Source: Candidatus Omnitrophota bacterium
GTDB lineage: Bacteria; Omnitrophota; Gorgyraeia; Zapsychrales; JBDRMG01
Assembly (NCBI GenBank): GCA_043812495.1
Contig: JBDRMG010000020.1
Location: forward strand, 1-47,932
DNA: 47,932 nucleotides
Reading direction: 5' to 3'
Under the pieces are notes generated by a model. It saw nothing but the letters and a program-made list of their open reading frames with translations, was not told the origin of the DNA and made no database searches. Within the stretch, counting starts at the first letter, position 1. Each line of letters opens with the position of its first letter. A program made the translations under genes and the position numbers. Below are positions 1-47,932 of this stretch, piece by piece.

Positions 1-141
1 AAGCCGAATACCTAACTCTACTACGCTCAAAAATTTCACTTCGTTTCATGTTTGAGCTTCGTAGAGTTCTACTTTCGCCTTTCCGCCCAAAATCTTTGAT
101 TTTGGGCGAGATCTCGCCCTGCTTTGCAGGGCGGACATCCC
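1..141. repeat. 141-bp terminal direct repeat, left copy
   Basis: Identical to 47792..47932; 141 is a common final assembler k-mer size. Confidence 0.97.
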
Positions 142-3100: not shown

Positions 3101-6100
3101 CCATAATACAGGATGACCTTCCCTGCTTTTATCGTTCGGAAATATATAATATTGCGTTATTAGAAGCCATGCGGCATTAAGGATGATTGCATTTGTGGTT
3201 ACGCCCAAAATTTCTTTAAATATGCTTATGACTTCCTTGCCAAACTCATCAAGAATGCCTAGGCCAGGTCCAAAAGAATCAGGATAAAAATCATATGAAT
3301 TTAAGTAACGGCGTATACGATTATTCAATTCCTGCAATAATGCAATTCCTTTAATTATGTCTTCTGGCATATCCTCTACTCTTAAATTCTCCTCAGAGAT
3401 TGAACCTATACGCCGAAGAGCTCCTGTTACTGCGCTATAATCAAGACTGCCTAAATCGCTTAATAGACTATTTATATCCTTCTCTTCTTCTTTAAAAGAT
3501 TGTACTTCTATCCCCAACGTCCCCAACATATCTATCCTGGATACCTCTTCGCCTTTTGCATATTTCAAGATAGCAGTGGCTACCTCCCCAAGTTGCGAAG
3601 CGATATCTCTTTCTTCTATTTGTGCTGGCCATTGTCCTAAAAACACCAAGACTTCCGATTCATCTTGCTTTGATCCATACCTTTCAATCAGCTTCCCCAA
3701 CGCAGATCTTAAAATTGTTGTATAATCTTTGCGATCTTTATTTCCTGCTAGAAAGTCTTCTCCTAATGTCATAAGTAAGTTTACAAATGCTGGACACTTC
3801 GGTTCCTCCTCCTGGCTTAAATCCCAATCAAGATGCATCTGTAAAATTTTCACTACCCGCCTACTAGCTGTGAAGTAAACATTCCGCTCAAAAGCATTAT
3901 GCTGTCCTTTGTTTTCACGTAAAGTCTTTAATAAGTCGAATAGTTGATGTGTAAATTTATCGATACTCTGACTACTGGAAAGATCACCATCCACCATCCC
4001 CAACGCAGGCGGGAGGAAGGCGGGAGTTATGACGAGAAGTAGGGTGGCAGCGATTGGAAGAGCGTATAGGGTATAGGGTCTAGGGTATAGTTGAGAGCCA
4101 TAAGCCATTTGCCATATGCTATAAGCTAGTATGCCAAGTAAGACTAACCCAACAACCGCAGGCGATACCACAAAGCAGTCGACGCTCGTGGTATCTTCTG
4201 GTGCGGTAGGTGGCTTACTGTCATACCAAACTTTTATATACTCATCAAGACAAGAACTTATATACCTTATTGACCTAACCACTAATTCAGTATCTTCCTT
4301 AAATCGATTTACTTTATCCTTGAAAGCTGTATCGCCCAAAGCCAAAACTTTATCTCTTAATTCTTCAATAAAAGGAATCGGCATTTCCATTATACTTTTA
4401 GCTTGAGGTAACATCTCTAAAGGAAGCCCCAAATCCCCCCGTTTCCAAACTCCATTCACTAGACTCTTCAACTTCTCTGATAGCGTAGAAAGTTTGCCGA
4501 TCATTTCATTTATAGAGGGATCTTGTTGCTTCCATATATACTGTAATGACCTATCTTGAGCTAAATTAATCAGTCTTTCTAGGTTTCTTATAACCTCGAC
4601 TTCCCACTGCCAAAAAGCGATTAAAAATTCTTCATCTCCAGAGAAAAATTTCTCAGCTTGTTCAGATAATGCTCTAAGCCACACATCTAAAACAGTATCA
4701 AAATCTATTTTTGGTTTCTGGTCTTCTCCATCCACCATGCCCACCAGCCCCGCTGCCAGAAATGTTGCAAACATTTCTAGCGGGGCCACAGGCACCAAAG
4801 GTGCAATAGAAAGGGCTTCGGCTGCGCTCAGCCCAAGGGCCGCTGGGCCAATCTGACCGCTGATGGCTGACAGCTGATGGCTCAACAGGCCCAGCGGCCC
4901 AAGGATGATGACAATAAAACAAGAAGCCGTGAGGGCAAAACTCCATTTAATATAGCCTGCTTGCCCTCGCAGCTCGCTCTGTTTTCTGTAATCTGTTCTC
5001 TGGTTTCTATCGACATCCGGCCCCCTAATCATTCTTTGCCAAATAAAGAAAGCCGTCAATATTATTACTATTATTACCACAGTCTCTGGCAGGACAAAAC
5101 AACCAAGGCTACACATCGATGGAGAGGCGATATTATTATTAGTCCTAGCCCATGCTGGCGGGTCATGTTTAAAAGCTGGAACAGGCTCCCAAATGGCGCT
5201 TAATGGACCAAATGCTTCCACAAACCGTTCCAGCACTTCATTTCTTGGCCCTTCCCACCATCCTCTTCCTCTGACTCTAGGTTGAGTGGAAACAGGCAAA
5301 ATTCTAATCTCCTCAAAATGCCGTTCGCCTATATCAATGAAATAAAGTTCGCATTGAATGCGTATAGCGAAATATCTTCCGCTTTTTTGCCGCTCCTGAA
5401 TTGTTGCCAGCGGCGCGGTATCAAATGCACTGATTTCTATTCCTGCGTTTACTTCCGGATAACCGATTTCACGGGTGCCAAACAAAGTGATAATCCTTCG
5501 ATGGATTCGGTGAGGATATCTTCTTATATAAGGCAGGTTGAACCAGTTTTGCACTGCAGAGGCAGACGGCCATTCAAAAATATACTCTCGTCCGAGTGTT
5601 AGCGGCATTACGCGGATAGCATGTCGCGCTCCCTGGAAGAATCCGAAAATTGTGCCTGCGACGAGTTTGGATGTCTTATTTTCCCGGTCTAATGGTGGAG
5701 CGGTTTCAAAAATATCAAATAATCTGACGGAAGGATTCTTTCCCGCCTGATATGCTAATCTCAATATGACTTCCCCTGGAACGCCGTCTTCATTTTTTGC
5801 GCTTCGGCCTGGAGCTTCTTGTCGATTAACGACATCCATGCATATGGAGGTGTGAATTGTATCTATCCCATTATTTTCGAGTCTCTGGAATATCTGCTTT
5901 ATCAATAAATCAAGCTTGCCTTCTCTATGTCGATTTTTTACTTCTTCGAGTAAATGGATATTCTCCATTGTCAAACCTTTACTCATCAAGAATCTTAGAC
6001 GGCTGTTGAAAAATTGCGCTTTATCTATCACCCCGATATAATGCAGGTTCTCGCTGGAAACATTGCTGCCTTCCCGGGTCATTGTGGCATAGAAAGGCGT

Positions 6101-9100
6101 GCCGCTGCTATATCCGTCCATCCGGCCGCTCGTTCGGCTGGTCATGCTCCTGGCGTCTAGATGTGCATCCGCCACGACAATTCCCTTTCGGCCTTTGAAG
6201 GTATAGAAATTCGGATGGGCGAAACCGTGGTCGCCTCCGATGGCAAGAATTGTAATATGAGGATTTATTTTCTGTATTTCGGAAAAGACAGCCTCTACAT
6301 TTCGATAAGTGTCGGCAATGATGTCAGGATAGGGACCGCCATATTGCGAGGAGATCAATTTGTGCTTTTGAGGATTATATTCTGACACCTTAATATTGCC
6401 CAAATAGACTATGATTAATTCCCCAATATTCTCTTTGCCCGCCAAAGATAATTCAGCGCGATCAATAAGGTACTTTATAACCTCGTGAGGTCCGAATTTT
6501 GCCCCCGGTCGGCCAAGATTCTTAATGGCTCCCGTATCGTCTGGTTCCCCTATGATGACGATATCCGCATCCCCCAAGAGTTCACGCGTAGGTTGCTCTC
6601 CATCCCAGATATGAATTATTTTTGAAGAAAATTGTCCGGATTGCGGAACAACGAATCTTCTAAATACGCTATCCCCGGCTTCTTGAGCATCTCCTTTTTT
6701 GGATCCTGTGGATAGGAAATACCCTTCAAGTTCCCCCATGTTGTTTACAGTCTTATCGGCGCCGGCGTTATTAAGTGTTTTTTCTATTTGATAGTGTTCT
6801 GGCAACCTTAGTTTTCTAATATTTATTGTGGCCTTTTTTCTCGTAATCTCCTCCACGGCCCGCGAAACCAGCTCAGGACTAATAGCATTTGCAAAGCCGA
6901 TGAGGGTCAGGTTTAAATCAGCCTTCGCGCGCCTCATCAACTCTATTTCACTTGTAGCATCGGCGACAAAATAGAACCTCTCTATACCATGCTTTCCCCT
7001 AATATAATCAAATTGCGACTTACCTTTTTCTAATATGATCACCCCATTCTCTTTTCTTTCCCCATAGGCTATGAGGTATTGTCCAATTTTCTTGCCTAGT
7101 TCTGTTTTAAGCCATCGCTGGATATCTTCATCGGGATAACCAGAAATGAGAAACTGCCTTACTCCGCTTGCCTGTAGCTTCTTGAGCAGTTGCTCTGACC
7201 CTTTAAATAATCCAACACTTTCGTAGTCCCTCTCGATATATTCATTGTACAATTCGACGATATCATCCAATGACGCCAATATGCCTTGGCCGTGCTCCTG
7301 TTCGAATTTCATCAACTTTTGTCTGACATTCAATCCGGAATATTCAAAAAACTTATTGATCAGGTATTCCAGCGGATACTTTTGCCTATTTTCTTCTTTT
7401 ATATATTTTCTTGCGGCAATAGCCGTTGCCGTAAAAACAATGTGCATCTTTTCAACAAGCGTGCCGTCCCGGATATAGACAACGCCTATTTTATGATTTT
7501 CTATCCGATAAGGTTCTTCTTGATTCTCCATCGTTCCGATTTTGACCATCCCCGCCAAAGGTATCAAAGAGAAAATATGCAAGAAGCTAAGGGCCGCTGG
7601 GCCTAAGCTGCTTAAAGCAGCTAATGCTCCTCCACCAGCCACGGTTGAGGTAAGAGCAATCAGGCCCAGCGGCCCAAAGAAGATGATGATTAACCCAAAA
7701 ACCGCTATTGAAAGTGCACCAGCCGGCGCGCGAAAAACGAAAAGCGACCATGCGTTTGCTTTCTTTTCTGCTGGTGGGCCCTGTGCCCTTTTCACGATTA
7801 TGATCATGGCAAGAATCCCAAGGATCGCTAAGAAACCCAGCACCAGCAACAACTCCCCGGCAGATCCAGTCTGCCATAGTCTATCAAAAATTCCTGGAGA
7901 GGATAGACCCGACGGCACAGGGAACCCGATAGAACATCCGAGGGTAAGTCTCCCCGCCTTATGAAGTTTTCTAAGCATCTTAACGATCGTTACATGAAAC
8001 ATTCCTTTTCGGGTCAAAGTAAAATCCTTTGCTTCAATGTTTTCACGGATTTTGACGAGAAACGAAGGAATGTCCTCGTCCGTATAATTTTGATATGCGG
8101 CGACTGTTTCTAATATAAGCGTCACGACTGCAAGGTCTAGAATATTTGCTCTGCAACCGCGTTGAGGCGATTGGCGCGCTCTCATTCCCCATCTCCAGCC
8201 TTCTGATCCAAGTCCAGCAAATAAGCGCCTTAGGCGCATAGTATTCCGAAATGTTCCGAAGAAAGTCCCTGTCAGCCATCCGATGGCCTTGAAATCGAAT
8301 GCCTTTAATGCCCGGAATAATTGAATGAAGAAAGCACGGCGTTTTCCCAGGCCATCCTGAAACAATACGAATACCGTCTCAACAATATGCTTACAAATCA
8401 GCGACGAGGCCTTTGCCTCCATGTCCTTATTGATCTTTTCTATTCCAATGTTCACTTTTTTCAGGTATAAATATATGTATGAGACCACAAGGGACTCCAG
8501 AAGAGATCGAGCAACGAAGACGCAAGGCCATCGCTTTGCTGGAGCAGGGCAAGAAGCCATCGGAAGTAGCCGAAGAATTGGGAGTAGCCCGGCAGACGAT
8601 AAGCTGGTGGAAGAGAATCGTCCGGGATTACGGGAAAGATGGCTTGAAGTGTCAGCCCCATCCGCATCGCGAGAGTCAGCTATCTTTGAAGCAGAGACAA
8701 AAGCTCCAGGAACTTCTCTTGCAGGGTCCTCAAGCACACGGGTACGCAGACCAGTTGTGGACGCTGGAGCGAATCGCGAAGGTAATAAAGAAACATTTTG
8801 GAATCGGCTTTCACCCAAGTCATGTCTGGCGGATATTACAAAAGCTGGGGTGGAGTTGTCAAAAGCCGGAGCGAATCGCTCTCGAGCAGGATCACAAGAA
8901 GGTCGAAGAGTGGCGAAAGAAGACCTGGCCGAGGTTAAAACGGGGGAAAAAAGGTACTGGTCTTCATTGACGAGAGCGGGTTCATGCTGCAGCCCGTTGT
9001 CCGTCGGACGTGGGCGCTGCGGGGACAGACGCCCATTCAGCGTCAATCCCAGAAACATGATCGACTTTCGGTTATCAGCGCCATCAGCGTTTCTTCCAGC

Positions 9101-36600: not shown

Positions 36601-39600
36601 AAACTCCGACCCAGTTGATCAATTCTTAAGGCGGATGTTCTGAATCTCTCAAGAAATACTTTCTTGATTTCATTCGATATATTCAAACCAATTAAAAGCT
36701 CATGATGAGTAAAGTAGCTTGATGCTCCGATTTCCCTTCGAAATGCGTTAAAGTCCCAATTCAAATCTCCTAATCTGTTTAAGACTTCAACCTTTGTTAA
36801 TTCATAATGTTTAAGCAGTCCGTCTTTTTTCACCATTGATTTCGCGCCCTTCTTTCCTTCTTCTGCCTTCTTTATGATCCCCACCACTCCCAACCCCGCC
36901 AGGTGCGCGAGGGAGACAGCGCCTGCCTGCGTCATGAAAAGGTAAAGCAGGCCCAAGGCCGCGAGGAAAACAAGGCAGGCGGCCGCTGTCGTTGAAACAG
37001 ACTTCACCGCGTCTTTGATTTCCAAGAGAATTCTGCGGATTCTTTCCCTGCTTAAGTTAAGCGAATTCCCGATATCTTCATAGAATTCTCTTTTTTGCGC
37101 GCGTCTTAAAATTTTTCTATTTCTCGGATGAATACCTAAATCGCTCAGGTGAACCGGCTTTTGCGCCAGGAGCTCATTGATTTCGCGGACCAATTGACTT
37201 GGTCGTTTTCTCTTTTTAGCGTTTCTCTTCGTTTTCTTTCGAGATGTCTTCTTTCTCGACGAAGTCTTGCGCGCCCCTTTCTTCATCGGCTGGATACCGC
37301 GCGACAAAAGAAAGTCGGGCCAGCTACCATAAAGCCGCTTGACGGCAAGAACAAAATCCTTGTAGCCGACCCTGACCCAATTGACACGATACCTTTTGTC
37401 TTGGATGCCTTTCGGCGGATGATTAAATTGTTCTTCTATGTCTGCTTTGGTCCACAGGCTGGCGAGAAATTCGGTCCAACCGCCGTAGAGCGTATTGATT
37501 TTTTTAAGCATCTGGCCGTATCCCGCCTGTCTCCATCCTTTCGATAACCGCGGTTTTTTGACAGTGTCGGGAGGATTATTGTATATGGCTTCTATTTTAC
37601 TTCTGCTCAACCGGCCAAGGTCAATCACTTCACGCGCCGGTTTTTTCCCGGATCTTTCTTGCCGGCAACGTTTGACAAATTGTCTCCGTTTCTCGCTCAA
37701 CTCATCATCGCCGATATAGCGCAGTACATAAGAATAAACCGTGGTGAAATGCACGCCTAATTCCACGGCCATGTCCGCGTAATGCCCATGATGCTTTTTG
37801 GTCAATTCCCGTATGCGACGCCGGCCCGGAAACCGATCCGATTTGGGGCCGGTCCTGATCACGCCCGATAAACCAAGCGGCATGGCTTTCATGACGCCAA
37901 GCGAAGTGAGAATAGTTGAATGATCGAAGCCGCCGGAATAGCCAATAGACAGCAATCCCAGACCAGCCAGAATCACAACGCAAAAACCAAAGAAGACAAG
38001 AGAACCACCGCCCCTCGAAGATGGAGAATTCTCGCATTTTCCTCTCAGATCTTCACTTAATAAGGGATGAACGGTTTCTTTTTCATTTTTCGCTATGCCT
38101 TGAAGGGCAGCGCGCGTTTCCTCGATGGTTTGCCCATCGTTCAATTTTCCTGTTTTGATTTGTTGAAGAACAATCTGAATGTTCTGAATGAACTTTCCTT
38201 TTAATATGTTAAATTCTGTGAGTTCCTCCGATATCCCTTCCAAAACTTTTCTTACGCCCGTGACTATGGCATACTGGGCGGGCAGATTATCCGTCTTTCC
38301 AAACTTCTTCTCGACCATTTTAGACAGATAAAGTCCGGGATTTTTCGCGCGAATCTCGCGCAAGCAGAGAATAAACATTTCAACGTACGTTGGATTTCTA
38401 TTTGCCAGGGCCTTGACCAAAGGCTTGCTGACTTCATAGGGACTCTTTTGAGAGATCTTAAGCAATAAGGATTTGGCTGCTTTAACGCGTTCTGGATTTG
38501 GATCAGATAAAGCGCCCACCAAAGGCTTGCTGACTTCATACGGACTGCTTTGAGAGATCTCAAGCAATAAAGATCTGGCTGCTTCAACGCATTCTGGATT
38601 TGGATCAGATAAAGCGCCCACCAAAGGCTTGCTGACTTCATAGGGGCGACTCTCAGATCGTCTGAGTAATTCATGACCAACCTCTTCTTCTCGGCCTGGA
38701 TATGTCAAAATGGCCACCAATTCATTTATTCTTAGTGAAGCGATATCCTTCACTGATGAAATAACTCCTATTGGGAATTCTCTGGTTCGAGCGGGCAATT
38801 GCGCTTGTCCGCGATCTAGGCCTCTTAACATTCCTACGAGATCCGGTGTGGATCCCGAAGCTATCGGGGATTTGTCTTGATCGTCGCTCTTGCTTGTTTT
38901 CGGAGATTTTAATTCTTTGCGCTCATCACGCGTGAATAGGCTTTTTTTGCCAAGTTCTTCATCTTGCATGACAATCATCTCAAGCTCCGTGCGGATTCTT
39001 TGCACTTTGGAAGGGTTCGTCTTGTTATCGCCTAGCTTGCTTCGCGCCTCGTCAATAGCACCCGTTAATTCTTCTCTCAGGGATTGGAACACCATGCTGT
39101 CTTTGCCTTGCGTTTCTCTTAAGCTCAGAACAAGGGCGTATTTGACGGCAAGATTGATTCTGTTTCCAAACTCTCTTTTGACTTTTTCCGGTGATGCAAT
39201 GCCCTGGAGAATGGATGAATTGCTTCCAAAGGCATTTTTCAATATACTTGAAACAACATCCGAGGAGCGAATTTGTCTTTTTCTTGCAACCATACCAAAG
39301 AGAACCAAAGACACATTAAAAGAAATCGAGAGTACTTGAGAAAAGACATCGGGTCCAGGGAAGTTAAGGAGATGGGATAAAAAGGAGTCAAGCGAAAGGA
39401 CGCCGGCGGTGCTTATTTGCGCAAAGATATCGAACCCGTCCGGACAGCAAAGGAGTGCAGGCAAGTGCGCCAAGTGCGTAGGGATCGTTATCGCCGAAAC
39501 AAAGGTCAAATCAAAAAGACCAAGTATATAAGGAAGAACGGACACAAACGCCAAAAATGGAAACAGCGGGAGGATGCACAAGGTCTCTGGACCGCTTTGA

Positions 39601-42600
39601 GGTTTATCTAATTCAGAAATAACGTTTTCGAAGGCGGGAATCAACTGCTCTTTGGCGGGTTGATCTTCTGTTCTCGCGCGACGCAGCGTCATGAGCGCGA
39701 AAGACAATCGAACGCTCACAAGAGACATGTCTTTGTTTGCGATACGTCTATTTGGTGGGAAATAGTTCTCTTGAATTTCTTCACAAATAGAGATGGCCGC
39801 ATCGAGTTTGTCCTGACGGATAAGTTCTCTGGTGATTTGAAGGACGGTTCGGATATCTTGTTGGACGACCTGACGTTCCTGATCGCAGTCCATGGGGAAG
39901 GAAACGAACTTGCGGATAATTGCAAGCGTGTCTTCAAGCGAAGTTTTATAATGTTTAAAGGTCGCGTCTTCGTCTTTCAATGTTTTTGCGACAACAATCG
40001 CTGTCGTCAACCGGTTATTGACTTGTCTGATATGGCTATTTTGCTTATCTTTGACGCGCGCCTCTATGGAGAAATGTTTCTTTCGAATCTCTTGCAGGAT
40101 ACCAAGCGCCCAGTCGAAGCGATCCTCTTTGATCGATCTTTGGGCCAACTCAACGGCGACTTTAAGTTCTTCCTCGCGCGTCATGCGGCTGCGCAATTTG
40201 TTCAAATAATCAGAAGCCTGGGAAAGGGAAATGGCGCGCATGCGCTGAAGCGCATCCATGCGGTCTTTGAATTTGTGGATGGCAGCTTCGAGAGATTCAA
40301 CGGTTTTTACGTAATTCCCGGATTTTAAGTATTCCTCAGCTCTTTTTAAATCTGGCAGAGCGGTCTTTCTGGCCTCATCAGAGACTCCGCGTTCAACCCA
40401 TTCTTTGGTGCGCTCAATCATCTGAGCGGCTTCCTGATGGATCGCCATAGAAATACTTTGGTCTCGTTCCGTAAGCTGCTTAATCGTATGCTTTAAGTGC
40501 GCGGCAACATCAAAAAGCGTCATGTATTCTTTTGTCTGGTTCACATATCTATGAATGGCCAGGCGAACAGCCTTTTCAAAGGACGAGACTTCCACAACAA
40601 TTTCTTTTTGTATTTTATAGACTCTGACTTCGCCTGTTTTTAACCGGACGTAGCGATTGACCCACGGCCGCAGGGCAACCCGAACAGCTTTGTTTTTCTT
40701 AACATCCACAGTCCAGCCTTCTATCTCTACAGAATCAAGAAGAACATGCATCCAGTCGCTTAGATCGATGTTGATGATTTTTCTTTCCTTGATTTGCCTG
40801 ACGCGCATCCAGTAATATTCGATATTGATGAGAATTTGCATATTATGATAAGCGCCGTCGATGCAGGCAAGGGCCGCCGAGAATAATTTCTTTTTCAAAA
40901 ACAGAAGCGATAATTTCAGCTGCACTCTTGTCTTCAGCCATAACAGCTCACGCTTTTGCTGATTAAGCTTGGTCAGAAGCTCATCGTCTTCCTTTTTGTC
41001 TGCGGACACAATCAGTTGATCGATTTTGGGGATTTTTTCTTTTAGCTGCTTAAGAAGCCGGCGTAAGGCATCGACATCCTCTGTTTGATCTCTTTTGGAC
41101 TCAAACGGTATTTCATCCGTAAGACCCTGAAGTTCGTCGCGAAGGACTTTGTATTCTTCTCTTAATCTTTCAAGCGCACCGACCTTATCCGGATCATTTT
41201 TAAATAGAGGACCTAGCGTAGTCACTAATTCCAAGGCGCGATTGATCTCAACAAACTTTTTGCGCATATACCGCGCCAGGCCTTCTTCTTGATCATCATT
41301 GTCATTGGCCTTTTTAACCATCGCCCCCAGCGGAATCAGGGCGAAACTTGCCGTTACATTCCATCCGCCCTGCGGGTCAAGACCGATCAAGGGTAGGATA
41401 AACAATATAAGCACACCTAGCCCCAAGGCCCCCAAAGCCCTTAAGACAAACTGGGGATCAACGGGTAAATTCTCGAGGATTTTTTCCCTGGATTGTCCAT
41501 CAAAATTCGAAGAGGCCTTGAGCATGATCATCAATGCTTCTTTTTGCGGGCAGACAAGAATATCTCTTAGGCGCTGACCACCATACCTTTGATATCCCGT
41601 TTCCAGCTCTTCATCCGACTCCTCTTCCAGTTTTTGCAGGAAACGCGCCAGCAGATACCTCATGAAATCCCGATAGCGTGGATGTTGCCGATAATGATTT
41701 AAAGTTTCTTCGAACTCAAAAGGAGACGCTTGTTCGGGAACAATCGGTTCCGTTAAAGACCCGAGGGCCAAACGATTCCATTGGTAGTGGATGCGCTCCA
41801 TGATTTGCGCCTCAAGAGACGGCCCGAGCACAGCAAACGGGATGTCGTCCTGAACACCCGAAAGAATCTTTTCGCTTCTGAATTGGGCTATTTCTTGAGA
41901 ACGGAAGTTTCCTCCGTCAACGGATTCCAAGATCCGGCCCAATTCATATTGCAATATTTTCTTTGTTAACGAAAATGTTTGGATGACAGTTGTCCGGCCA
42001 TACGTTCCGTAGACAAGCTGCTGGGGTTCTTTACTTTCAAACTCGTTGAGTCCTTGCATAACAAAATTAGCGCGGTTGATCAAGAAAATTAAGGCAAGCA
42101 AGCGATAGATTTGCAGATCCGGCGTACCGGCTTTGCATATGATCAGAAGATTATTAAGATCGTTTAAAGGTGCGCAAATTTCATTGTTGATAAAAGCGAT
42201 GAGCTGGCGGGATGGACCTGAAAAATTCAATGGTGAATCATCGAACCGGTCAATATTGGAATAGGTGGCCTCGGCCAATCGTTCCTTTTTCTGGTTGTAG
42301 AGATAACTCTTCACGGCCAAAGCAATGCTGTCAATGGACTGGCAGACATGGCTCCTGACAATGCCCCGGAATTCATCCTTGTTTCCGGCTATTTCATAAA
42401 TCCGCTTTTGCGGAATTCCGTTTTTTTCGCTCAGGGTAATCCCCAGCGGGAACAGCGCGGCCAGCGCAGAGGAATAAAGACTATCGACAGCAGGCTTTAA
42501 AACTCTTTCGAATGCTTCCCGGAAGGCCTTTGTCAGGACCTCCAAATCCTCATTTTGATAACCGTCGAGAATCATCCCCACAAGCGGCAGAAGCAGGAAG

Positions 42601-45600
42601 AGATCGGGAAGGAAGCAGCCTAAGACAACACCTGCCTTTACAACTTCCTCTCTGCTTGTACCGGCAAGACTCAGAATTTGCTCTCTTTCTCTGGCGATAT
42701 TGGTCTCATATTCCACTCTTAAAGGTTCTTCCTGATGAGGAATACCCAGATTTTCCAGAAAGTTTCCTTCTAAACGATTTTTTCGCTCGTCAAAAAGAAT
42801 TTGAATGAGTCTTTTTGTTAAGTAGAGCCGCCTTGCGGGGCTTTTTAGAATTTCGTACATAATCGCATAAGGATGAGGACATACTTTTACTCTTTCTTTA
42901 AAATCTGGCTCGACTTCTTGTGTTAAATCTAAAAGTATGCTTGGCTTCATTTCCAAAACCCATGTAATAGGATCATCTTTGGCTCGATTGAGGATATCGG
43001 ATAATTCTTCGTCAATAATGTTACCCATTGAGAAATTTGAATAGAGAATATCGTAAAAATAAACGTTTCCATCTTCATCAAAATATAAATATTCCGGCTG
43101 CCAATGATAGGCTGTATCGATACCCGAGAGAAAATCTTCCGTAGTGCCCCAATTACGGATATATTGATCTTCACCTAACAACTCCGCATAACCTACTCTA
43201 TTAACAAAATCTCTTATGACGGTAATGGTGTATCCAGCTTTTAGGCCGTTTATAAATGTTATTTCATCTATTATCGGCAACTCAATATCTTGGGCTTGTC
43301 GATCTTTCAGAGTTATAGTCTCAACAACTTTATGTACAGGGCCTAGTTCTCTTCGTCTTAATTCTTCAACCAACTCTTGAATTCTCTGATCAAAGCCAGG
43401 TTCATGCACGCTTCTTATCTGAATAGGTAGCTTTGGCATATATCTCACAGCGACTTCGATAATATTTGCGACATGGGAGATAGGTAATTTATCTTGATGA
43501 AAGCTATCAAAGGAAATGGATAAGCAAAATTCGTAGTCAGTATCATTTTTCATTTTTGCCATGACGCATGGTCCTATAAAGGCCATACGGGCAAGGGTCA
43601 TTCGGAGGTCCTTTGTAACATCTGCATTGATTTGTAAGACTAGAGGAAGATTGATTTCGTCCATCAAGAATTGTACGTCTGCTTGAGCAAAGCCCAATGT
43701 GTTTCCGCCAATAATCGCCACAGCTGTAAACTCAGGAAAAGACTGGACAGAAGACAATATTTTTCTGTACATTTCTTTCCTTTGCTTCCAGGCCATATTT
43801 CTTGTCTTTCCTTTATAAGCAAGCTGGCAATGAGTGCATCCTGTGACGCAACTTCGTGTAACCTGGATATTGACAGTATCATTAATAAAAATAATAGGAT
43901 TAGGAATGCTTGTCATAGAAGCTAGTTGAGCGACAAGGTTTCTTCTTTCTAGATCAACGCCCTGCCCGATCATTTCGTAATAGTATCTTGCTTTTGCTTC
44001 AACAATCCTTTTCGCCAAGCCACGATTTGAATCCCGCAGATTACCTGCAATAATCATGCCAAACACAGGCACAAGCAAGAAGAGATCGAGGGGAAGGGCG
44101 CAAGCCAACACAACTCCCTGATCCGAACAATCTCTTTCTGTGAAATTGGATAAGCTATGCGGCAGCACGTCCGCAAGGTCTTGCGCATCCTTCAAAATTT
44201 CATCGTATTGCTTAAGGTCAACGCGGGTGGAATGCCGTAAGTTCAATTGATAATTATCAAGGATAAGGATTTTTTCAACGACTTCTTTGAGGAGTTCTTG
44301 GGCATCTTTCTTTTTACGAAATCTTTTTAACTGTATCTGATAAGCGTTGAGGGTCTCCATAGTCTTTTTAACAGGCTGAATCAGTATATCCTCGACAAAT
44401 TGTCGGTCGACAGTGGCATTTCTTGAATTTCGACCGTTGGAGACTTTGAGACACTCTCCGTCTGTGGAAAGACAAAGAATGTGCTCCAGGGCCTCAAGAT
44501 AACGCGAAGCCACCCGATAAGTCATGATCGCCCTTTGAACACCGGCCGATGATCTTCCTTTTTCGCTCCTGGCTTCTTTGACGGCAGAGGCAAAATCAGA
44601 ATCCGCTTTCAAAAGTCTTCCTAAAGGCCAGCGGAAAGTGTGATAGCCGTCCGTTTGGCTATAACCTAATTGCCTGCCTAAAGAGGCGATGGTTTCACCG
44701 TTGGCCAAGCCTCCTAAAACAAAAACTTTGAGACGGTCGGTGAGCGCCCCTTGATACAACTCAAAGAATCTCTTGAAAGTCGGAAATCTTTCTTCAAAAA
44801 TATCGACCAAACTCTTAAACGCAAAACCGACACGGTTTTGCGTGGAGCGTCTGCCCATGATCTCGGTCAAACCGTAATACTTTCTCATCGTACGAATCAA
44901 ATCAGCCAATAGATTCTTGTAAACTCCGTTCATGTCTTCCTTGAATTGCTCATCTTCCGCTTCAAGCTCTGCTATCCATTTACGCAAAGTGACTTTGTCG
45001 ACACCAATTTGTTTGGCCGTTGCGCGCAGACTGCCTTTCTTGATTCTTAACCAGTAAAGAATGCATCGTTTTTGCTCAACATAAATAGGTTTGACTTTTT
45101 CTTTAAGATCCCCATCGCCGTCTCTAATAACACGGGCCACTTCTCGTGCGGATAAGCCAAGGATCTCGGCGGCTTTGAATTTGTTTCCTTTGGCTTTCTT
45201 GAGCGCCGCTACAAAAGCCACTCTTGAAATTTGTTGTTTTTTACGTTTAATGGTAACGGTAAGATTGTTTTTCTGATCAGTTTTTTTGGTCATCCCGACG
45301 ATTACTGGAACAAAAGCCAAACCAGCGGCGGATGAGGCGGGAATGAGGACGAGAAGCAGGATGGCAGCAATTGAAAGAGTGTATAGCAGATAATTAGGGA
45401 CGTCTTTCATTCTGATCCCAAGGGTGTCCCCATAAGCTCGCCTAAGGGACAGGCTTAGGTTACGGCTGAAGGACGTCCCTAAACGAAGGAGGTCTTCGAT
45501 TGAGAACGGCACCAGGGCGCAGTGGAGGCTAACAGACCCATCCAAACCTTTTTCGAACAATCCAACAAGAATTTCTTCGTTAAACGGTTCGTTGAATCGC

Positions 45601-47930
45601 CCGGGATGCGCATAAACCGCAACTCCGCCAAATCGATGCGCCCAGTCAATCGCTTCCTGAATGGAAATCTCTTCTTTTTCCGGCACAGATCCGTGAATGA
45701 TTTCTCTCTTTCGCCTGTACTGATCGACATCAGAAAAATATACAAGAATGTGCACGTTTTCATTTGTGTGGATCTCAACTGCAGGAATAACGCGGACATA
45801 TTTGTCGCAAGCAAGCTCCAAAACTTCATCGCCCACATTAAACGAATGAACATCAGCCACAGCGATTGTTTTTAGCCCATGCGCGAGCGACTCATCGAGA
45901 ATATCCCTGGCAGGAATGATTTCTATATCCTTATCCGCGGCGTACTCCAAGGCCTCAAGAACACCCTCAAAGGTATGATGATCGCAAATGGCAATGGCTT
46001 TAATATTCTTTTCGATGGCTTCGTCGATAATTTGTTGCGGGGAATACGTCGCGCCTTTGGAATAATGAGAATGGATATGCAGGTCGATTTCATTCATGCC
46101 GTAATCCAAACCGATCAGTTGTTTGTCGGATTTATAAAGGAGACGTGATCCGGCAAGAACGAACAGAGCGCAGAGAACAGCCGCAAGCGGATTGGACCAT
46201 CGCAGCAAAAGTACAGCAAAAATTGTCACCAAAGGCGCTGCGGATAAAAGGGTTGATGCTGTCGATGCCGGGATTGATTCAAGAACCTTGAAATACAGAA
46301 TATAAGCGCACACGGATATAGCCGTATAAATAAAGAACTCTTTTGAGAAATCAACCACGATAAATCCGCCTGAAAAAACCATCATTAATGCGATCCCGGC
46401 AAAGATACCTGTGAAGATTCCGATGCTGGCGGCAAAAAAACCATCCACTCTTCTTGTGATAGCTTTCATCGAAAGAATAGCGCCGGCAGCTAAGATCGTG
46501 GCTGCGCAAAGAAGCATGATTCCCTTGATAGAATCAGTCCCAACCGCAGCATGGTAAAACACATAGATCACAATGCTTCCAGCAACAATCAAGGTCCCAC
46601 TGATCTTTTTCCAAGTAAATTTTTCTGATTTCATCTTGAAAAGAAATATGCCTGTCACCAATACAACAATTGGCTGCAGCTGCACAAAAAGGGCATAGGT
46701 GCTTTCAGAAACCAATCCTAAACTGCTAAGCTGAAGCGGAAAAATAATCCCTTGAATCAACAGACCAATTCCAATGATCCCCAGTAAAATTTTCTTTGGC
46801 ATGGACTTGATAAATTCAAGTGGCTTCCCTCTATAAACCGGCTTAATAAATGGAAATATGGAGAAGAGAGATGGAAGGACTAAAATACCGGCGAGAAGAT
46901 TAATCCAGAAAACAAGCGCATAAACGTCTTGCTTAAGGACGTTCATTTTCCCAAAAATCGGGAACAGGCCGCGCATCAGGATCAGGGCGAACAAAATCGT
47001 CATCCCTTTGTGCTGGCGGTAGAAATGCTTGATTTTACGATATCGGGGTGAGCCGCGGATGCCGTTAGCGAGTTGGCTTACGGTTATTGTGAGGTTCTTT
47101 TGAGCATTTTTATTTGTTATGAGGCCAAATGCCGGTAAGATAACGAATCCAGCCAAATAATTCAAAAGATCCGGCAGCATCTCAATACCCGGTAAAAGAG
47201 AGCAGTAAAATTCTATGGCTGGTGAATCAACCAAATGCACTCTTTGTTGATCATCCACAGATATATGTTTTTGGTTTGCTCTTAATGCAGCGATTCCTTC
47301 TGTGCCAATACCCTGGGCTTCGAGTTCTCTATTAAGAATATCTTCCCGGACAATGAGATTGAGTACTTTTCCTCGAATCCTCTGGTTGTCTAGGATAGCT
47401 CCAATCGTCGCTAAGCTAATATCACCGTAGGACTTAACGATTGAGAAAATGTCATCATCAAGATAAGTTTGGGTGTATAAAGAAAGCACATCATGCAATC
47501 CTCGCTCAACGCACCATCTTAGGATTGGATCCTGATTAACCGCCTCAATGGCCCCTTCGAGATTATCAAGCTTACCTAATGGATAGAACCCGTTGAGTTC
47601 AAAATACTCATCGACATAGAAATTTCCATCTCCGCCTAAGGCAATCTTTTGGGCTCCCTCGACAAGCTGTCTTTCGCCTTCATCAAAACAGGTTCCGATT
47701 TTAGATTGAGCTTTTTGCTCAGATAATGAACCTCCCTGCAGCAAGACTGCAGGGTATCTTTTTTTAGACGAATCTTGAGGTTCATTCTTCGAAGCCGAAT
47801 ACCTAACTCTACTACGCTCAAAAATTTCACTTCGTTTCATGTTTGAGCTTCGTAGAGTTCTACTTTCGCCTTTCCGCCCAAAATCTTTGATTTTGGGCGA
47901 GATCTCGCCCTGCTTTGCAGGGCGGACATC
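33576..47930 (-). CDS. Giant modular membrane-anchored protein, segment 1 (5'-partial, at least 4784 aa)
   Basis: Track ORF 33576..47840 (4754 aa). The frame has no stop upstream of ATG 47840 to the window edge, and that ATG lies inside a repeat, so the true start is probably elsewhere. Ends at TGA 33576-33578. Confidence 0.93.
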   Translation of the reverse strand, partial: DVRPAKQGEISPKIKDFGRKGESRTLRSSNMKRSEIFERSRVRYSASKNEPQDSSKKRYPAVLLQGGSLSEQKAQSKIGTCFDEGERQLVEGAQKIALGGDGNFYVDEYFELNGFYPLGKLDNLEGAIEAVNQDPILRWCVERGLHDVLSLYTQTYLDDDIFSIVKSYGDISLATIGAILDNQRIRGKVLNLIVREDILNRELEAQGIGTEGIAALRANQKHISVDDQQRVHLVDSPAIEFYCSLLPGIEMLPDLLNYLAGFVILPAFGLITNKNAQKNLTITVSQLANGIRGSPRYRKIKHFYRQHKGMTILFALILMRGLFPIFGKMNVLKQDVYALVFWINLLAGILVLPSLFSIFPFIKPVYRGKPLEFIKSMPKKILLGIIGIGLLIQGIIFPLQLSSLGLVSESTYALFVQLQPIVVLVTGIFLFKMKSEKFTWKKISGTLIVAGSIVIYVFYHAAVGTDSIKGIMLLCAATILAAGAILSMKAITRRVDGFFAASIGIFTGIFAGIALMMVFSGGFIVVDFSKEFFIYTAISVCAYILYFKVLESIPASTASTLLSAAPLVTIFAVLLLRWSNPLAAVLCALFVLAGSRLLYKSDKQLIGLDYGMNEIDLHIHSHYSKGATYSPQQIIDEAIEKNIKAIAICDHHTFEGVLEALEYAADKDIEIIPARDILDESLAHGLKTIAVADVHSFNVGDEVLELACDKYVRVIPAVEIHTNENVHILVYFSDVDQYRRKREIIHGSVPEKEEISIQEAIDWAHRFGGVAVYAHPGRFNEPFNEEILVGLFEKGLDGSVSLHCALVPFSIEDLLRLGTSFSRNLSLSLRRAYGDTLGIRMKDVPNYLLYTLSIAAILLLVLIPASSAAGLAFVPVIVGMTKKTDQKNNLTVTIKRKKQQISRVAFVAALKKAKGNKFKAAEILGLSAREVARVIRDGDGDLKEKVKPIYVEQKRCILYWLRIKKGSLRATAKQIGVDKVTLRKWIAELEAEDEQFKEDMNGVYKNLLADLIRTMRKYYGLTEIMGRRSTQNRVGFAFKSLVDIFEERFPTFKRFFELYQGALTDRLKVFVLGGLANGETIASLGRQLGYSQTDGYHTFRWPLGRLLKADSDFASAVKEARSEKGRSSAGVQRAIMTYRVASRYLEALEHILCLSTDGECLKVSNGRNSRNATVDRQFVEDILIQPVKKTMETLNAYQIQLKRFRKKKDAQELLKEVVEKILILDNYQLNLRHSTRVDLKQYDEILKDAQDLADVLPHSLSNFTERDCSDQGVVLACALPLDLFLLVPVFGMIIAGNLRDSNRGLAKRIVEAKARYYYEMIGQGVDLERRNLVAQLASMTSIPNPIIFINDTVNIQVTRSCVTGCTHCQLAYKGKTRNMAWKQRKEMYRKILSSVQSFPEFTAVAIIGGNTLGFAQADVQFLMDEINLPLVLQINADVTKDLRMTLARMAFIGPCVMAKMKNDTDYEFCLSISFDSFHQDKLPISHVANIIEVAVRYMPKLPIQIRSVHEPGFDQRIQELVEELRRRELGPVHKVVETITLKDRQAQDIELPIIDEITFINGLKAGYTITVIRDFVNRVGYAELLGEDQYIRNWGTTEDFLSGIDTAYHWQPEYLYFDEDGNVYFYDILYSNFSMGNIIDEELSDILNRAKDDPITWVLEMKPSILLDLTQEVEPDFKERVKVCPHPYAIMYEILKSPARRLYLTKRLIQILFDERKNRLEGNFLENLGIPHQEEPLRVEYETNIAREREQILSLAGTSREEVVKAGVVLGCFLPDLFLLLPLVGMILDGYQNEDLEVLTKAFREAFERVLKPAVDSLYSSALAALFPLGITLSEKNGIPQKRIYEIAGNKDEFRGIVRSHVCQSIDSIALAVKSYLYNQKKERLAEATYSNIDRFDDSPLNFSGPSRQLIAFINNEICAPLNDLNNLLIICKAGTPDLQIYRLLALIFLINRANFVMQGLNEFESKEPQQLVYGTYGRTTVIQTFSLTKKILQYELGRILESVDGGNFRSQEIAQFRSEKILSGVQDDIPFAVLGPSLEAQIMERIHYQWNRLALGSLTEPIVPEQASPFEFEETLNHYRQHPRYRDFMRYLLARFLQKLEEESDEELETGYQRYGGQRLRDILVCPQKEALMIMLKASSNFDGQSREKILENLPVDPQFVLRALGALGLGVLILFILPLIGLDPQGGWNVTASFALIPLGAMVKKANDNDDQEEGLARYMRKKFVEINRALELVTTLGPLFKNDPDKVGALERLREEYKVLRDELQGLTDEIPFESKRDQTEDVDALRRLLKQLKEKIPKIDQLIVSADKKEDDELLTKLNQQKRELLWLKTRVQLKLSLLFLKKKLFSAALACIDGAYHNMQILINIEYYWMRVRQIKERKIINIDLSDWMHVLLDSVEIEGWTVDVKKNKAVRVALRPWVNRYVRLKTGEVRVYKIQKEIVVEVSSFEKAVRLAIHRYVNQTKEYMTLFDVAAHLKHTIKQLTERDQSISMAIHQEAAQMIERTKEWVERGVSDEARKTALPDLKRAEEYLKSGNYVKTVESLEAAIHKFKDRMDALQRMRAISLSQASDYLNKLRSRMTREEELKVAVELAQRSIKEDRFDWALGILQEIRKKHFSIEARVKDKQNSHIRQVNNRLTTAIVVAKTLKDEDATFKHYKTSLEDTLAIIRKFVSFPMDCDQERQVVQQDIRTVLQITRELIRQDKLDAAISICEEIQENYFPPNRRIANKDMSLVSVRLSFALMTLRRARTEDQPAKEQLIPAFENVISELDKPQSGPETLCILPLFPFLAFVSVLPYILGLFDLTFVSAITIPTHLAHLPALLCCPDGFDIFAQISTAGVLSLDSFLSHLLNFPGPDVFSQVLSISFNVSLVLFGMVARKRQIRSSDVVSSILKNAFGSNSSILQGIASPEKVKREFGNRINLAVKYALVLSLRETQGKDSMVFQSLREELTGAIDEARSKLGDNKTNPSKVQRIRTELEMIVMQDEELGKKSLFTRDERKELKSPKTSKSDDQDKSPIASGSTPDLVGMLRGLDRGQAQLPARTREFPIGVISSVKDIASLRINELVAILTYPGREEEVGHELLRRSESRPYEVSKPLVGALSDPNPECVEAARSLLLEISQSSPYEVSKPLVGALSDPNPERVKAAKSLLLKISQKSPYEVSKPLVKALANRNPTYVEMFILCLREIRAKNPGLYLSKMVEKKFGKTDNLPAQYAIVTGVRKVLEGISEELTEFNILKGKFIQNIQIVLQQIKTGKLNDGQTIEETRAALQGIAKNEKETVHPLLSEDLRGKCENSPSSRGGGSLVFFGFCVVILAGLGLLSIGYSGGFDHSTILTSLGVMKAMPLGLSGVIRTGPKSDRFPGRRRIRELTKKHHGHYADMAVELGVHFTTVYSYVLRYIGDDELSEKRRQFVKRCRQERSGKKPAREVIDLGRLSRSKIEAIYNNPPDTVKKPRLSKGWRQAGYGQMLKKINTLYGGWTEFLASLWTKADIEEQFNHPPKGIQDKRYRVNWVRVGYKDFVLAVKRLYGSWPDFLLSRGIQPMKKGARKTSSRKKTSRKKTKRNAKKRKRPSQLVREINELLAQKPVHLSDLGIHPRNRKILRRAQKREFYEDIGNSLNLSRERIRRILLEIKDAVKSVSTTAAACLVFLAALGLLYLFMTQAGAVSLAHLAGLGVVGIIKKAEEGKKGAKSMVKKDGLLKHYELTKVEVLNRLGDLNWDFNAFRREIGASSYFTHHELLIGLNISNEIKKVFLERFRTSALRIDQLGRSFGYYGIMSGYAFVSQIAQSLGVNLETQRKNIVQERGWLLGALGKTKSDILAELGDGWNLKEFEEKYSKYITNFVPRWDFFHGLAISAELRSKAMEHIQSGRLSLIPLGEAFGFSAKAAESFSVGLVNHFGINLERKAKELMRKSGYLLSMQEESRADFLRRMKEEGVIGNDVFNLYALREEALTIISAPYATHVDNIRGFDLLKTFKAFLRQQYVRRRGNFSILSEDFGIPRKNPNGVLKRLIKAYDPTLLDLNFHDDGQNGYFLCEKHSVTRDKVLALMESAKWNIPLFKSLVTAEGWVNESESYASLITGFDLQDEFNKKFAKRYKKYLGMMNYISPAFGFSLGKDGKLTKMFQTFRKEMNVETEGLEIDRTPGFLLRFLKVSKDKIILMLPVLWDLNAFRNEIYQTYGNQYPFIRKMNFGELIVGFDLLEEFHNAIVEKEEEILRRTSPKVVFYSDLARKFCVSDKEFERIIPIMSETMKKEAIMTSGSRLDERTEDCEASFQARRNSKINIWGTQNVYDDDDRYSASMMGDELGDSEDSYDEDDIEQEEPLEVDEEPLRVSYNSNGVGKKLGINNETMDFILKLLFGAGISEARFKRAAGSIVGLQELSNDIEERLAQWAVIFVARKLTDKLGLRDGNGLMGMRDDLIKNIEFDFEVIEANLTDPGQFSLKRAENTIIKLQSLVMLDHQHKTRCIDDAVRTKINRFQRIYMEEVKQRKDAGTPQANPCAYGVSTESGQMDKWAKGKTQEVVEDITENDRVYKYIPQWAVDALRDYPDVLELLRHKMIRLVKTASRKQTRAPPFPFLWFILATRFLVAVTVKGRGIKPGIYLPIGLISLLIEAGEIDLLKRILVHELAHLNGQQENIEESESLAKEVFAVWINEMNKGTEQEAPIQRLLDPSVSAKEKIPSLRELMRAQRGFDLTGLLFRYADPFLEETILASGIDFSSCRLDLILRCHSDNWQKAYREAKEDMTTDDSYPRKMWDLARIVCERVRQHFAIIGYP
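33950..34330 (-). other. Zincin-like HExxH domain preceded by RAPP
   Basis: RAPP 34185-34196; ILVHELAHL (HELAH 34017-34031) with downstream Glu residues. Confidence 0.6.
38392..38646 (-). repeat. 102-bp (34-aa) HEAT-like tandem repeat, about 2.5 copies
   Basis: aaaggcttgctgacttcata at 38419, 38521 and 38623; PYEVSKPLVGALSDPNPE units. Confidence 0.92.
42720..44040 (-). other. Radical SAM domain with SPASM-like tail
   Basis: CVTGCTHC (CxxxCxxC, 43827-43850), IIGGN, ISFDSFHQ, DGNVY...MGNI. Confidence 0.8.
45396..45480. repeat. Double-hairpin REPIN-like element, copy 1
   Basis: agggacgtctttca...tgtccc..gggacaggctt...tgaaggacgtccct. Confidence 0.8.
45530..46100 (-). other. PHP phosphoesterase domain
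   Basis: IDLHIHSHYS, AICDHHT, IPAVEI..HILVY, YAHP motifs. Confidence 0.85.
46140..47010 (-). other. EamA/DMT-like transporter domain
   Basis: About ten hydrophobic helices in two repeats; LFVQLQPIVVLVTGIFLFK..EKF and ASTLLSAAPLVT motifs. Confidence 0.8.
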
Positions 47931-47932
47931 CC
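47792..47932. repeat. 141-bp terminal direct repeat, right copy
   Basis: Identical to 1..141. Confidence 0.97.

Follow-up and report, generated by a model that had tools for sequence, protein, structure and literature searches.

The contig JBDRMG010000020.1 (47,932 nucleotides; assembly GCA_043812495.1) of an uncultured Candidatus Omnitrophota bacterium, analysed here over its whole length and called the window below, is probably an internal fragment of a giant gene for a membrane-tethered, multi-module protein, with both the true start and the true end of that gene lying outside it. Two very long open reading frames (ORFs) on the minus strand, A and B, fill it from end to end; most likely they are parts of one gene. 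The continuity of the frame appears to have been selected, since it stays free of stops through an IS630-family insertion sequence (IS) lying antisense, a miniature inverted-repeat transposable element (MITE), hairpin repeats, and the antisense genes hicB and hicA.

Two Open Frames and Their Coding Signal

The ORF listing of the window gives no in-frame stop inside either A or B (Table 1). B is in the +1 frame relative to A, the two overlap by 89 nucleotides, and together they cover the whole window. The first ATG of A, at 47840, yields the annotated protein of 4,754 amino acids. The original prediction, made from the letters alone, held that a second minus-strand frame of 11,221 codons ran from 33664 to the left edge and that the frames filled 48 kb and were open at both ends; the ORF listing confirms each of these statements, and the in-frame stops that the prediction had named as an objection to itself were looked for within A and B and are absent. 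With its 11,221 codons, B exceeds the limit used for an uninterrupted giant ORF in Omnitrophota (at least 10,000 codons or more than 20 kb). At about 45% GC, a stop-free length of 33 kb makes a chance origin impossible.

A codon-usage model trained on 662 ordinary ORFs of the same genome and applied in segments of 150 codons favours the giant frame in all 31 segments of A and in 73 of the 74 in B (104 of 105 in all). The signal is somewhat lower than that of ordinary genes (median codon score about 0.2 against 0.27), and 17 of 397 segments of 80 codons score as non-coding, against 0.9% of control segments. Three stretches with low coding scores (16865-17224, 4985-5344, and 2105-2464) consist of hydrophobic segments and linkers rich in arginine, proline, and glycine, and no nested gene was recognised in them. 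ORF A, taken from ATG 47840, is present in a public protein collection as a singleton. B itself was not retrieved when its first 1,200 residues were compared by phmmer with 1.84 billion representative proteins, which agrees with the description of the gene as hidden in the original prediction.

Modules and Helices of the Predicted Product

Domains were sought by a Pfam scan of the product in 16 overlapping chunks, together with NCBIfam and PDB sequence searches. Confident Pfam matches account for about 1,650 of 16,005 residues (about 10%), and weak matches to HTH_8, HTH_28, and Sigma70_r4 also occur in the giant frame. A Kyte-Doolittle hydropathy scan (19-residue span, threshold 1.7) detects 63 hydrophobic segments, 19 in A (the EamA block included) and 44 in B, many of which separate recognisable modules.

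If the frame is translated as a whole, the product would be one very long polypeptide, held in the cytoplasmic membrane by some 60 hydrophobic helices that include the 10-helix EamA block, with enzyme, regulatory, and scaffold modules placed between them. Because these modules need S-adenosylmethionine (SAM), ATP, and Fe-S, most of them would face the cytoplasm, and the protein may act as a membrane-bound array of enzymes and regulators.

The mixture of metabolic, signalling, DNA-binding, proteolytic, and transport domains that had been proposed is recovered in part. Transport is represented by the EamA module, metabolism by the PHP, HAD, ureohydrolase, and methyltransferase modules, and signalling by the kinase; the helix-turn-helix and sigma-like matches are weaker, and the proteolytic element comes down to an HExxH motif and an Atlas lead to a "zinc-binding metallo-peptidase" (0.86, weak). 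The HExxH region gave no Pfam match, and its single-sequence AlphaFold model was unusable (pLDDT 45).

Repeated sequence is found at several places in the frames. At 38416-38645, a HEAT-like unit of 102 nucleotides (34 residues) is repeated in tandem at 93% identity, and a paralogous pair of 396 nucleotides (29042-29433 and 30326-30717) is 71% identical. Two further stretches, 45378-45480 and 4836-4929, are shared at 94-95% identity with other giant contigs of the same bin (C63:4122-4224 and C32:3029-3122, respectively).

Table 1. Coordinates of the features recognised in the window
Feature	Position	Strand	Details
Frame A	33576..47930	-	4,784 codons; 5' end open; stop TGA at 33578-33576
Frame B	2..33670	-	11,223 codons from stop to stop (11,221 from ATG 33664, 2..33664); 3' end open
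Frame junction	33576..33670	-	95-nucleotide zone, the sole place where a +1 shift joins A to B; variable base 33588/33589, TT on gene strand
Repeat R, right copy	47725..47932	-	Includes 65-nucleotide extension with a further hairpin
EamA-type transporter	46131..47009	-	PF00892 E 4.4e-11; TIGR00950; about 10 hydrophobic helices
PHP-family metal-dependent phosphoesterase	45561..46097	-	PF02811 E 1.1e-10; NF041577, NF038032; PDB 2yb1, 9etk
Divergent radical-SAM/SPASM-like module (weak)	42981..43868	-	PF04055 E 0.033 and PF13186 E 0.13, in the expected order; TIGR04115, TIGR04368 about 1e-3; CxxxCxxC at 43827-43850
HELAH (HExxH) motif of putative peptidase module	34017..34031	-	Sole support for a peptidase besides the weak Atlas lead
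HEAT-repeat module	32264..33553	-	PF13646 E 1.1e-6; begins eight residues past the junction
MITE, 103 nucleotides	31707..31809	.	TA at both flanks; 103 + 2 = 105 nucleotides = 35 codons, stop-free in frame
hicA toxin gene	24887..25114	+ (antisense in B)	PF07927 E 1.2e-18; one in-frame TAA at 25004-25006, within the match
hicB antitoxin gene	24687..24890	+ (antisense in B)	PF15919 E 5.3e-7, 30.3 bits against a cut-off of 27; Shine-Dalgarno-like AAGAAGGAGG; ATG start
SAM-dependent methyltransferase	20153..20734	-	PF08241 E 2.5e-7; NF045667; adjoins the kinase half-domain
Ser/Thr protein kinase, N-terminal half	19391..19843	-	PF00069 E 9e-15, profile 1-144 of 263; NF033483; PDB kinases
Second methyltransferase (weaker)	16352..16597	-	PF13649 E 1.4e-4; PF08241 E 1.1e-3
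TPR repeat scaffold	14297..15028	-	PF13428 E 4e-15; PF13432 E 5.7e-15
CheR-like methyltransferase	12164..13432	-	PF01739 E 2.3e-3; paralogues on C19 (32%) and C35 (29%)
IS630-family element, 1,138 nucleotides	8430..9567	+ (antisense to B)	TA duplications at 8428-8429 and 9568-9569
HAD-family hydrolase	7067..7468	-	PF00702 E 4.8e-5; PF13419 E 6.6e-5
Ureohydrolase, arginase/formiminoglutamase family	5642..6574	-	PF00491 E 1.4e-26; TIGR01227 E 3.7e-30 (below cut-off); PDB 3m1r E 1.5e-8
Repeat R, left copy	1..178	-	Core 1-170, CTTCG feet; read in frame

The Junction between A and B

A groundwater metagenome run of low depth (about 2-3), here X1, was the sole run with contigs covering part of the window. 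Nine small X1 contigs matched the window, seven of them at 99% identity or more, and one of 219 nucleotides covers 33493-33712 without a mismatch and with a single letter missing at 33588. This is the only insertion or deletion reported across the X1 contigs, and the missing base converts frame A into frame B and so fuses the two. Over the 27 codons upstream of 33588, the codon model prefers frame A to frame B by 5.3 log units; downstream of it, frame A meets stops at once and frame B is clean. As judged from these sequences, A and B are most likely one gene, split in this assembly by a one-base insertion. The extra base at 33588/33589 may reflect either a consensus error or a frameshift that is real and recent. 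The single gene of the original prediction is accordingly not one ORF in this assembly: it contains one frame break, which is bridged only in the depth-2 X1 contig. Two other explanations of the break were considered and rejected. Recoding of the TGA is contradicted by the further stops that frame A meets just past 33576, and no slippery site for a programmed +1 frameshift was recognisable by eye in the overlap.

Searches for relatives on either side of the junction gave little. The last 500 amino acids of A had no match in 40 related genomes, the last 700 had none among proteins of 1,226-3,500 amino acids, and residues 1-800 of B had none among proteins of 5,500-17,500 amino acids. The phmmer search with B gave two matches at E <= 0.001 among the 1.84 billion representatives. 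The HEAT module of B is 22% identical, over 465 aligned columns, to an internal part of the 4,828-amino-acid protein P0003, which shows no significant alignment with the end of A. Among metagenome contigs, an exact-pattern scan with either junction allele found 0 matches and a scan for related loci with the HEAT module found 0 relatives. A consensus scan of 28000-47932 for promoters and terminators placed no site at the junction and showed no enrichment (28 promoter-like sites against 28.8 expected; 29 terminator-like sites against 22.7 +/- 4.4).

Mobile DNA Read Through by the Frame

One 150-codon segment with a negative coding score led to the IS630-family element. With its duplicated TA the insertion measures 1,138 + 2 = 1,140 nucleotides, exactly 380 codons. 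Its inverted repeats match at 20 of 23 positions, TA stands at both flanks, and its predicted transposase is split over two frames at an A-run (ORF 8479-8970, HTH_33 E 5e-20; ORF 8939/8984-9487, DDE_3 E 1e-28 to 3e-34), features that together point to membership of the IS630 family. Across the element, the giant frame and one plus-strand frame have 0 stops and the other four frames have 11-22. A plus-strand ORF of 404 codons (8421-9635) was rejected as a gene, having no Pfam match and codon statistics below those of the giant frame; it is read as the stop-free third frame of the IS.

TTA, CTA, and TCA, together 3.1% of all codons in the genome, are absent from the DDE ORF of the element, and the closest relatives of the element (G081:C10 and G243:C3; 40-43% identity) have unusually long open alternative frames of 362, 299, and 269 codons. 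Of 400 other Omnitrophota genomes, 7 contain relatives of the DDE_3 protein (31-43% identity); none of the eight relative loci lies in a giant frame, so that the idea of an IS family specialised for giant ORFs is not supported.

The 103-nucleotide repeat in B has 25 near-full copies in the genome, 87-100% identical, and its ends resemble the IS630 inverted repeats; on these sequence features it is assigned as a MITE derived from the IS630 element. Specialisation of the MITE for ORFs was rejected, only one of the 25 copies being in a giant contig and most lying just upstream of gene starts. A copy on C38 (11152-11254) lies 78 codons into an open frame of 220 codons that is membrane-protein-like on both sides, and may be an in-frame insertion in an ordinary gene.

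Antisense Toxin-Antitoxin Genes

The window holds 236 ORFs of at least 55 codons outside the giant frames, and when these were scanned against Pfam, four matched at E <= 0.001: the two transposase ORFs of the IS, hicB, and hicA. The hicB and hicA genes overlap by GTGA at the stop of hicB, and both score above the Pfam cut-offs. The pair is not an intact HicAB, because hicA carries an in-frame TAA. Between 24640 and 25120, the giant frame is free of stops, against 5-14 in each of the other five.

Ordinary genes of the genome served as a control. Their three antisense frames were stop-free in 29, 3, and 0 of 1,813 segments of 480 nucleotides, and in none of 536 segments of 1,140 nucleotides. Because antisense openness is so rare in ordinary genes, the open frame across the inserts appears to have been filtered or maintained rather than to be accidental.

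The same association is seen on other giant contigs of the genome, where 5 of 11 stretches with low coding scores hold antisense genes of toxin-antitoxin type (PIN_3 on C65 and on C53, two PIN on C42, and DUF433 with DUF5615 on C19). Genome-wide, the giant contigs account for 3 of 3 PIN and 3 of 3 PIN_3 matches (together four loci), 2 of 2 HicA matches, and 1 of 2 DUF433 matches. Seven of the eight loci of toxin-antitoxin families thus lie within about 14% of the DNA, all seven opposite a giant frame, a count that may be biased since the families were picked after being seen in giant frames. C53 has an intact HicA match (E 1.7e-13, no stop) at 23002-23166, antisense within a frame of 11,238 codons; it escaped the coding-score scan of that contig.

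PIN_3 matches occur in 38 of 200 further genomes of the class. Three of 29 PIN_3 loci examined lie antisense within frames that are open across the whole locus. These frames, still open at both ends, have at least 6,666 (G307:C37), 4,507 (G442:C81), and 2,686 codons (G199:C51), and the first two contain two PIN matches each.

Contig Ends and the Larger Gene

Positions 1-141 of the window are identical to 47792-47932; the same 141-mer ends contig C39, and C63 begins inside it. Both ends belong to repeat R, a compound of GC-rich hairpins with a long closing stem and CTTCG flanks. The core, in the copy on C32, folds at -85.6 kcal/mol (z = -8.2), and no Rfam family matches the repeat. Hairpin copies of R are dispersed over at least 12 other contigs, the diverged ones lying mostly between genes. 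Its extension in the right copy contains an 8-bp GC-rich hairpin followed by a T-run (47734-47754, plus strand), terminator-like and on the strand opposite the giant gene.

Contig C32 overlaps positions 1-307 at 99% identity, all of its 1,450 codons are open through the repeat, and it is joined by 141-nucleotide overlaps to C52, C19, and C35, which are fully open. The frame within the repeat is the same at both edges of the window and at the end of C63. Since neighbouring contigs carry the frame on through the end repeats, the window is a fragment of a larger gene. The contig next to A on its upstream side may be C63 or one that was not binned; a path into C39 would end the frame 17 codons past the repeat. 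A hand sum over the listed frames (13 frames on 11 contigs, plus C32 and C44) gives a stop-free total of about 92,700 codons, or about 14% of the genome.

Contig C45 of the same genome has an ORF of 5,718 codons (2927-20080) with a real 5' end and an open 3' end. A Peptidase_C39 domain (PF03412; C45:3485-3859) lies about 190 codons into it. This ORF is probably the N-terminus of a giant gene of the genome.

Host Assignment

The window is the entire contig C20 of a bin of 1.94 Mb in 66 contigs that is 90% complete. The RpoB protein of the bin (on C26) is 68-85% identical to those of metagenome-assembled genomes (MAGs), most of which bear the label Omnitrophota or Omnitrophica; its identity to that of Candidatus Velamenicoccus archaeovorus LiM is 70%, and some third-party assemblies among its closest relatives carry the label Planctomycetales. 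The RpoB comparison supports Omnitrophota as the host phylum of the bin and bears out the assignment first made from the style of the frame. No tRNA was found in the window, and an Rfam search of it gave no match.

Alternative Explanations

Several observations weigh against a single giant gene of this kind. As assembled, a stop and a frame change separate A from B, and the fused form comes from one 219-nucleotide contig at depth 2, possibly itself an error, in a run that may share its campaign with the window. B could begin independently at ATG 33664, which has AAGAGGA 11 nucleotides upstream, or at TTG 33589, and a homologue spanning the junction was not found in the searches described above. 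C63 contains a second two-frame junction, in which frames of 6,322 and 5,722 codons overlap by 164 nucleotides (17005-17168), so frame breaks may be a regular feature rather than accidents; that overlap is a unique, GC-rich, low-complexity linker directly after a hydrophobic helix, and it has no sequence similarity to the junction in the window. As to the product, about 90% of its residues are without a confident domain match, and the helices come from a simple hydropathy scan, at least one call of which (residues 2984-3003) falls antisense to hicB. SecA_DEAD (PF07517), present in most full-length giants according to the literature, was found only on C10 (in a 997-amino-acid ORF) and C55, and not in the window. 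The membership of C20 in the bin, finally, depends on binning, shared repeats, and end overlaps with other bin contigs. Several of these points would be accounted for by two or more separate, very large genes in tandem, A ending at TGA 33576 and B starting at ATG 33664 or TTG 33589, with the overlap serving translational coupling in an operon of large ORFs. The assembly shows exactly such a layout, the sequence before ATG 33664 resembles a Shine-Dalgarno site, C63 provides a similar pair, and the HEAT module of P0003 begins where B begins, which would make the junction a module boundary. However, the overlap zone codes better in A than in B, the single-base deletion in X1 falls within the 95-nucleotide zone and has the one sign that fuses the frames, and there is no enrichment of promoter- or terminator-like sites and none at the junction; we consider tandem genes unlikely.

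Two further explanations carry less weight. The gene could be a decaying relic, non-functional in this lineage and gathering a frameshift, an IS, a MITE, hairpins, and captured cassettes. One frame break is present, the frame contains inserted or repeated DNA of at least five kinds, the nested hicA has a nonsense codon, and the 80-codon segments that look non-coding exceed the control rate. A relic at 45% GC would, however, gain a stop about every 20 codons, whereas the two frames here run for 33.6 kb and 14.3 kb with no stop, foreign DNA included, where the probability of an open frame by chance is below 2%, and codon statistics are gene-like elsewhere; decay is therefore improbable. The identical 141-nucleotide termini, across whose join the reading frame would be continuous, could also mark a circular element of 47.8 kb, a collapsed tandem, or another assembly artefact. 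Against this, the 141-mer is found again at the end of C39 and at the start of C63, the left end of the window is reached by C32 from unique sequence, and the repeat is dispersed on at least 12 other contigs, so that repeat-induced contig breaks explain the termini and a circle is very improbable indeed. The interpretation as one fragmentary giant gene is thus retained, in a form that differs from the original prediction in two respects. The 16,000 or so codons stand as a stop-free coverage of the window and not as the size of a gene: as assembled they lie in two frames, they include about 2.1 kb of mobile or foreign DNA through which the frame is read, and the contig is only part of the gene, bounded on each side by a repeat, the frame continuing on its neighbours. 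Likewise, the window has no intergenic DNA in the sense that the frame never stops, but it does contain an IS, a MITE, hairpin repeats, and the antisense hicBA genes.

Comparison with Known Giant Genes

Giant genes are known from this phylum. Candidatus Velamenicoccus archaeovorus LiM has a protein of 39,678 amino acids (Seymour et al. 2023, PMC10066038). Omnitrophota ORFs of up to 85,804 amino acids have been described, in which numerous transmembrane regions are combined with SecA domains embedded in the chain and a C39 or S8 peptidase close to the N-terminus (West-Roberts et al. 2023, bioRxiv 10.1101/2023.11.21.568195). A later catalogue extends to 147,155 amino acids, with transmembrane helices or signal peptides in 94% of the ORFs and singletons making up 80% of the sequence clusters, and notes that short-read MAGs break long ORFs at contig ends (Nielsen and Lui 2026, bioRxiv 10.64898/2026.06.07.730766). 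Giant Omnitrophota ORFs are reported there and elsewhere as domain-poor, poorly conserved, and rich in transmembrane helices.

The window resembles these published giants in its host phylum, in its length of more than 10,000 codons, in its many predicted hydrophobic helices, and in its few, divergent domains and poor conservation. On another contig of the genome, C45, the C39 peptidase near the N-terminus of a giant ORF has the position described by West-Roberts et al. (2023). It differs in being only an internal fragment with a frame break, and in a content of cytoplasm-type enzymes and regulators. The Pfam scan of the window found no SecA_DEAD, glycosyl hydrolase, glycosyl transferase, NUDIX, dockerin, or adhesin domains. 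Of the enzymes that define the Archaeovorin type of West-Roberts et al. (2023), namely glycosyl transferases, glycosyl hydrolases, peptidases, NUDIX hydrolases, and SAM methylases, the window contains only SAM methyltransferases, and it lacks the divergent SecA DEAD helicase domain embedded in that type, although the whole gene could still qualify; the dockerin type of the same report is not represented, no dockerin or TSP3 domain having appeared in the 16 chunks scanned. On the 2-kb contig C55 of the same bin, a partial ORF at its start (1-1041) matches SecA_DEAD at E 1e-107, and this could be the SecA embedded in giant genes that the literature describes.

There is also agreement with Class 1 of Nielsen and Lui (2026), the "multi-enzyme metabolic cluster," for which the report lists a co-occurrence Module 1 including the PF08241 methyltransferase and the PF13419 HAD hydrolase, together with HEAT and TPR content. 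The window has many Pfam families with none dominant, PF08241, PF13419, HEAT, and TPR among them; it is a singleton, and it is truncated at the contig ends of a short-read MAG. That catalogue consists of complete ORFs, unlike the window, and the text available of it does not mention frameshifts, antisense genes, or nested genes. In the two main papers on giant genes, antisense, nested, and opposite-strand genes likewise go unmentioned, and transposases and antitoxins appear only as flanking genes; a literature search for antisense toxin-antitoxin genes in giant Omnitrophota genes returned nothing relevant.

For the small inserts, the nearest parallel is with Rickettsia palindromic elements and intragenic MITEs (PMC10969869), mobile repeats that lie inside coding frames without breaking them, as the 103-nucleotide MITE and repeat R do here. 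Unlike those intragenic MITEs, most of the 25 MITE copies in this genome lie just upstream of genes, and a whole IS of 1.1 kb is also read through, a case not described in the part of that review available.

Implications

The giant gene as a class is already published, and the window adds one fragmentary, sequence-unique example. It shows how short-read MAGs and gene callers together hide giant genes, as B, absent from the protein collections searched, illustrates. More is learned from the internal anatomy: a single base decides between one gene and two, and the frame stays open where it crosses selfish DNA and opposite-strand genes, whether working or decaying, with toxin-antitoxin loci of this genome concentrated there.

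Reading-frame continuity seems to be selected for as such in the gene described here. A broader proposal, offered tentatively and with some doubt, is that selection in Omnitrophota protects the uninterrupted frame itself, for example because ribosomes trail the polymerase along an RNA of 50-250 kb. Only stop-free, frame-preserving inserts would then survive, and giant frames would have become the main harbour of selfish DNA in these small genomes: IS630 elements that, counted with their target duplication, measure a multiple of three, MITEs, hairpins, and toxin-antitoxin cassettes in antisense orientation. Nested toxin-antitoxin pairs might guard the gene against deletion, and in-frame capture might be one route by which such genes grow.

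If the pattern is found more widely, annotations of giant proteins would overstate the amount of functional protein and hide real genes on the opposite strand, and the stop-free filter would provide a handle on whether giant frames are translated from end to end.

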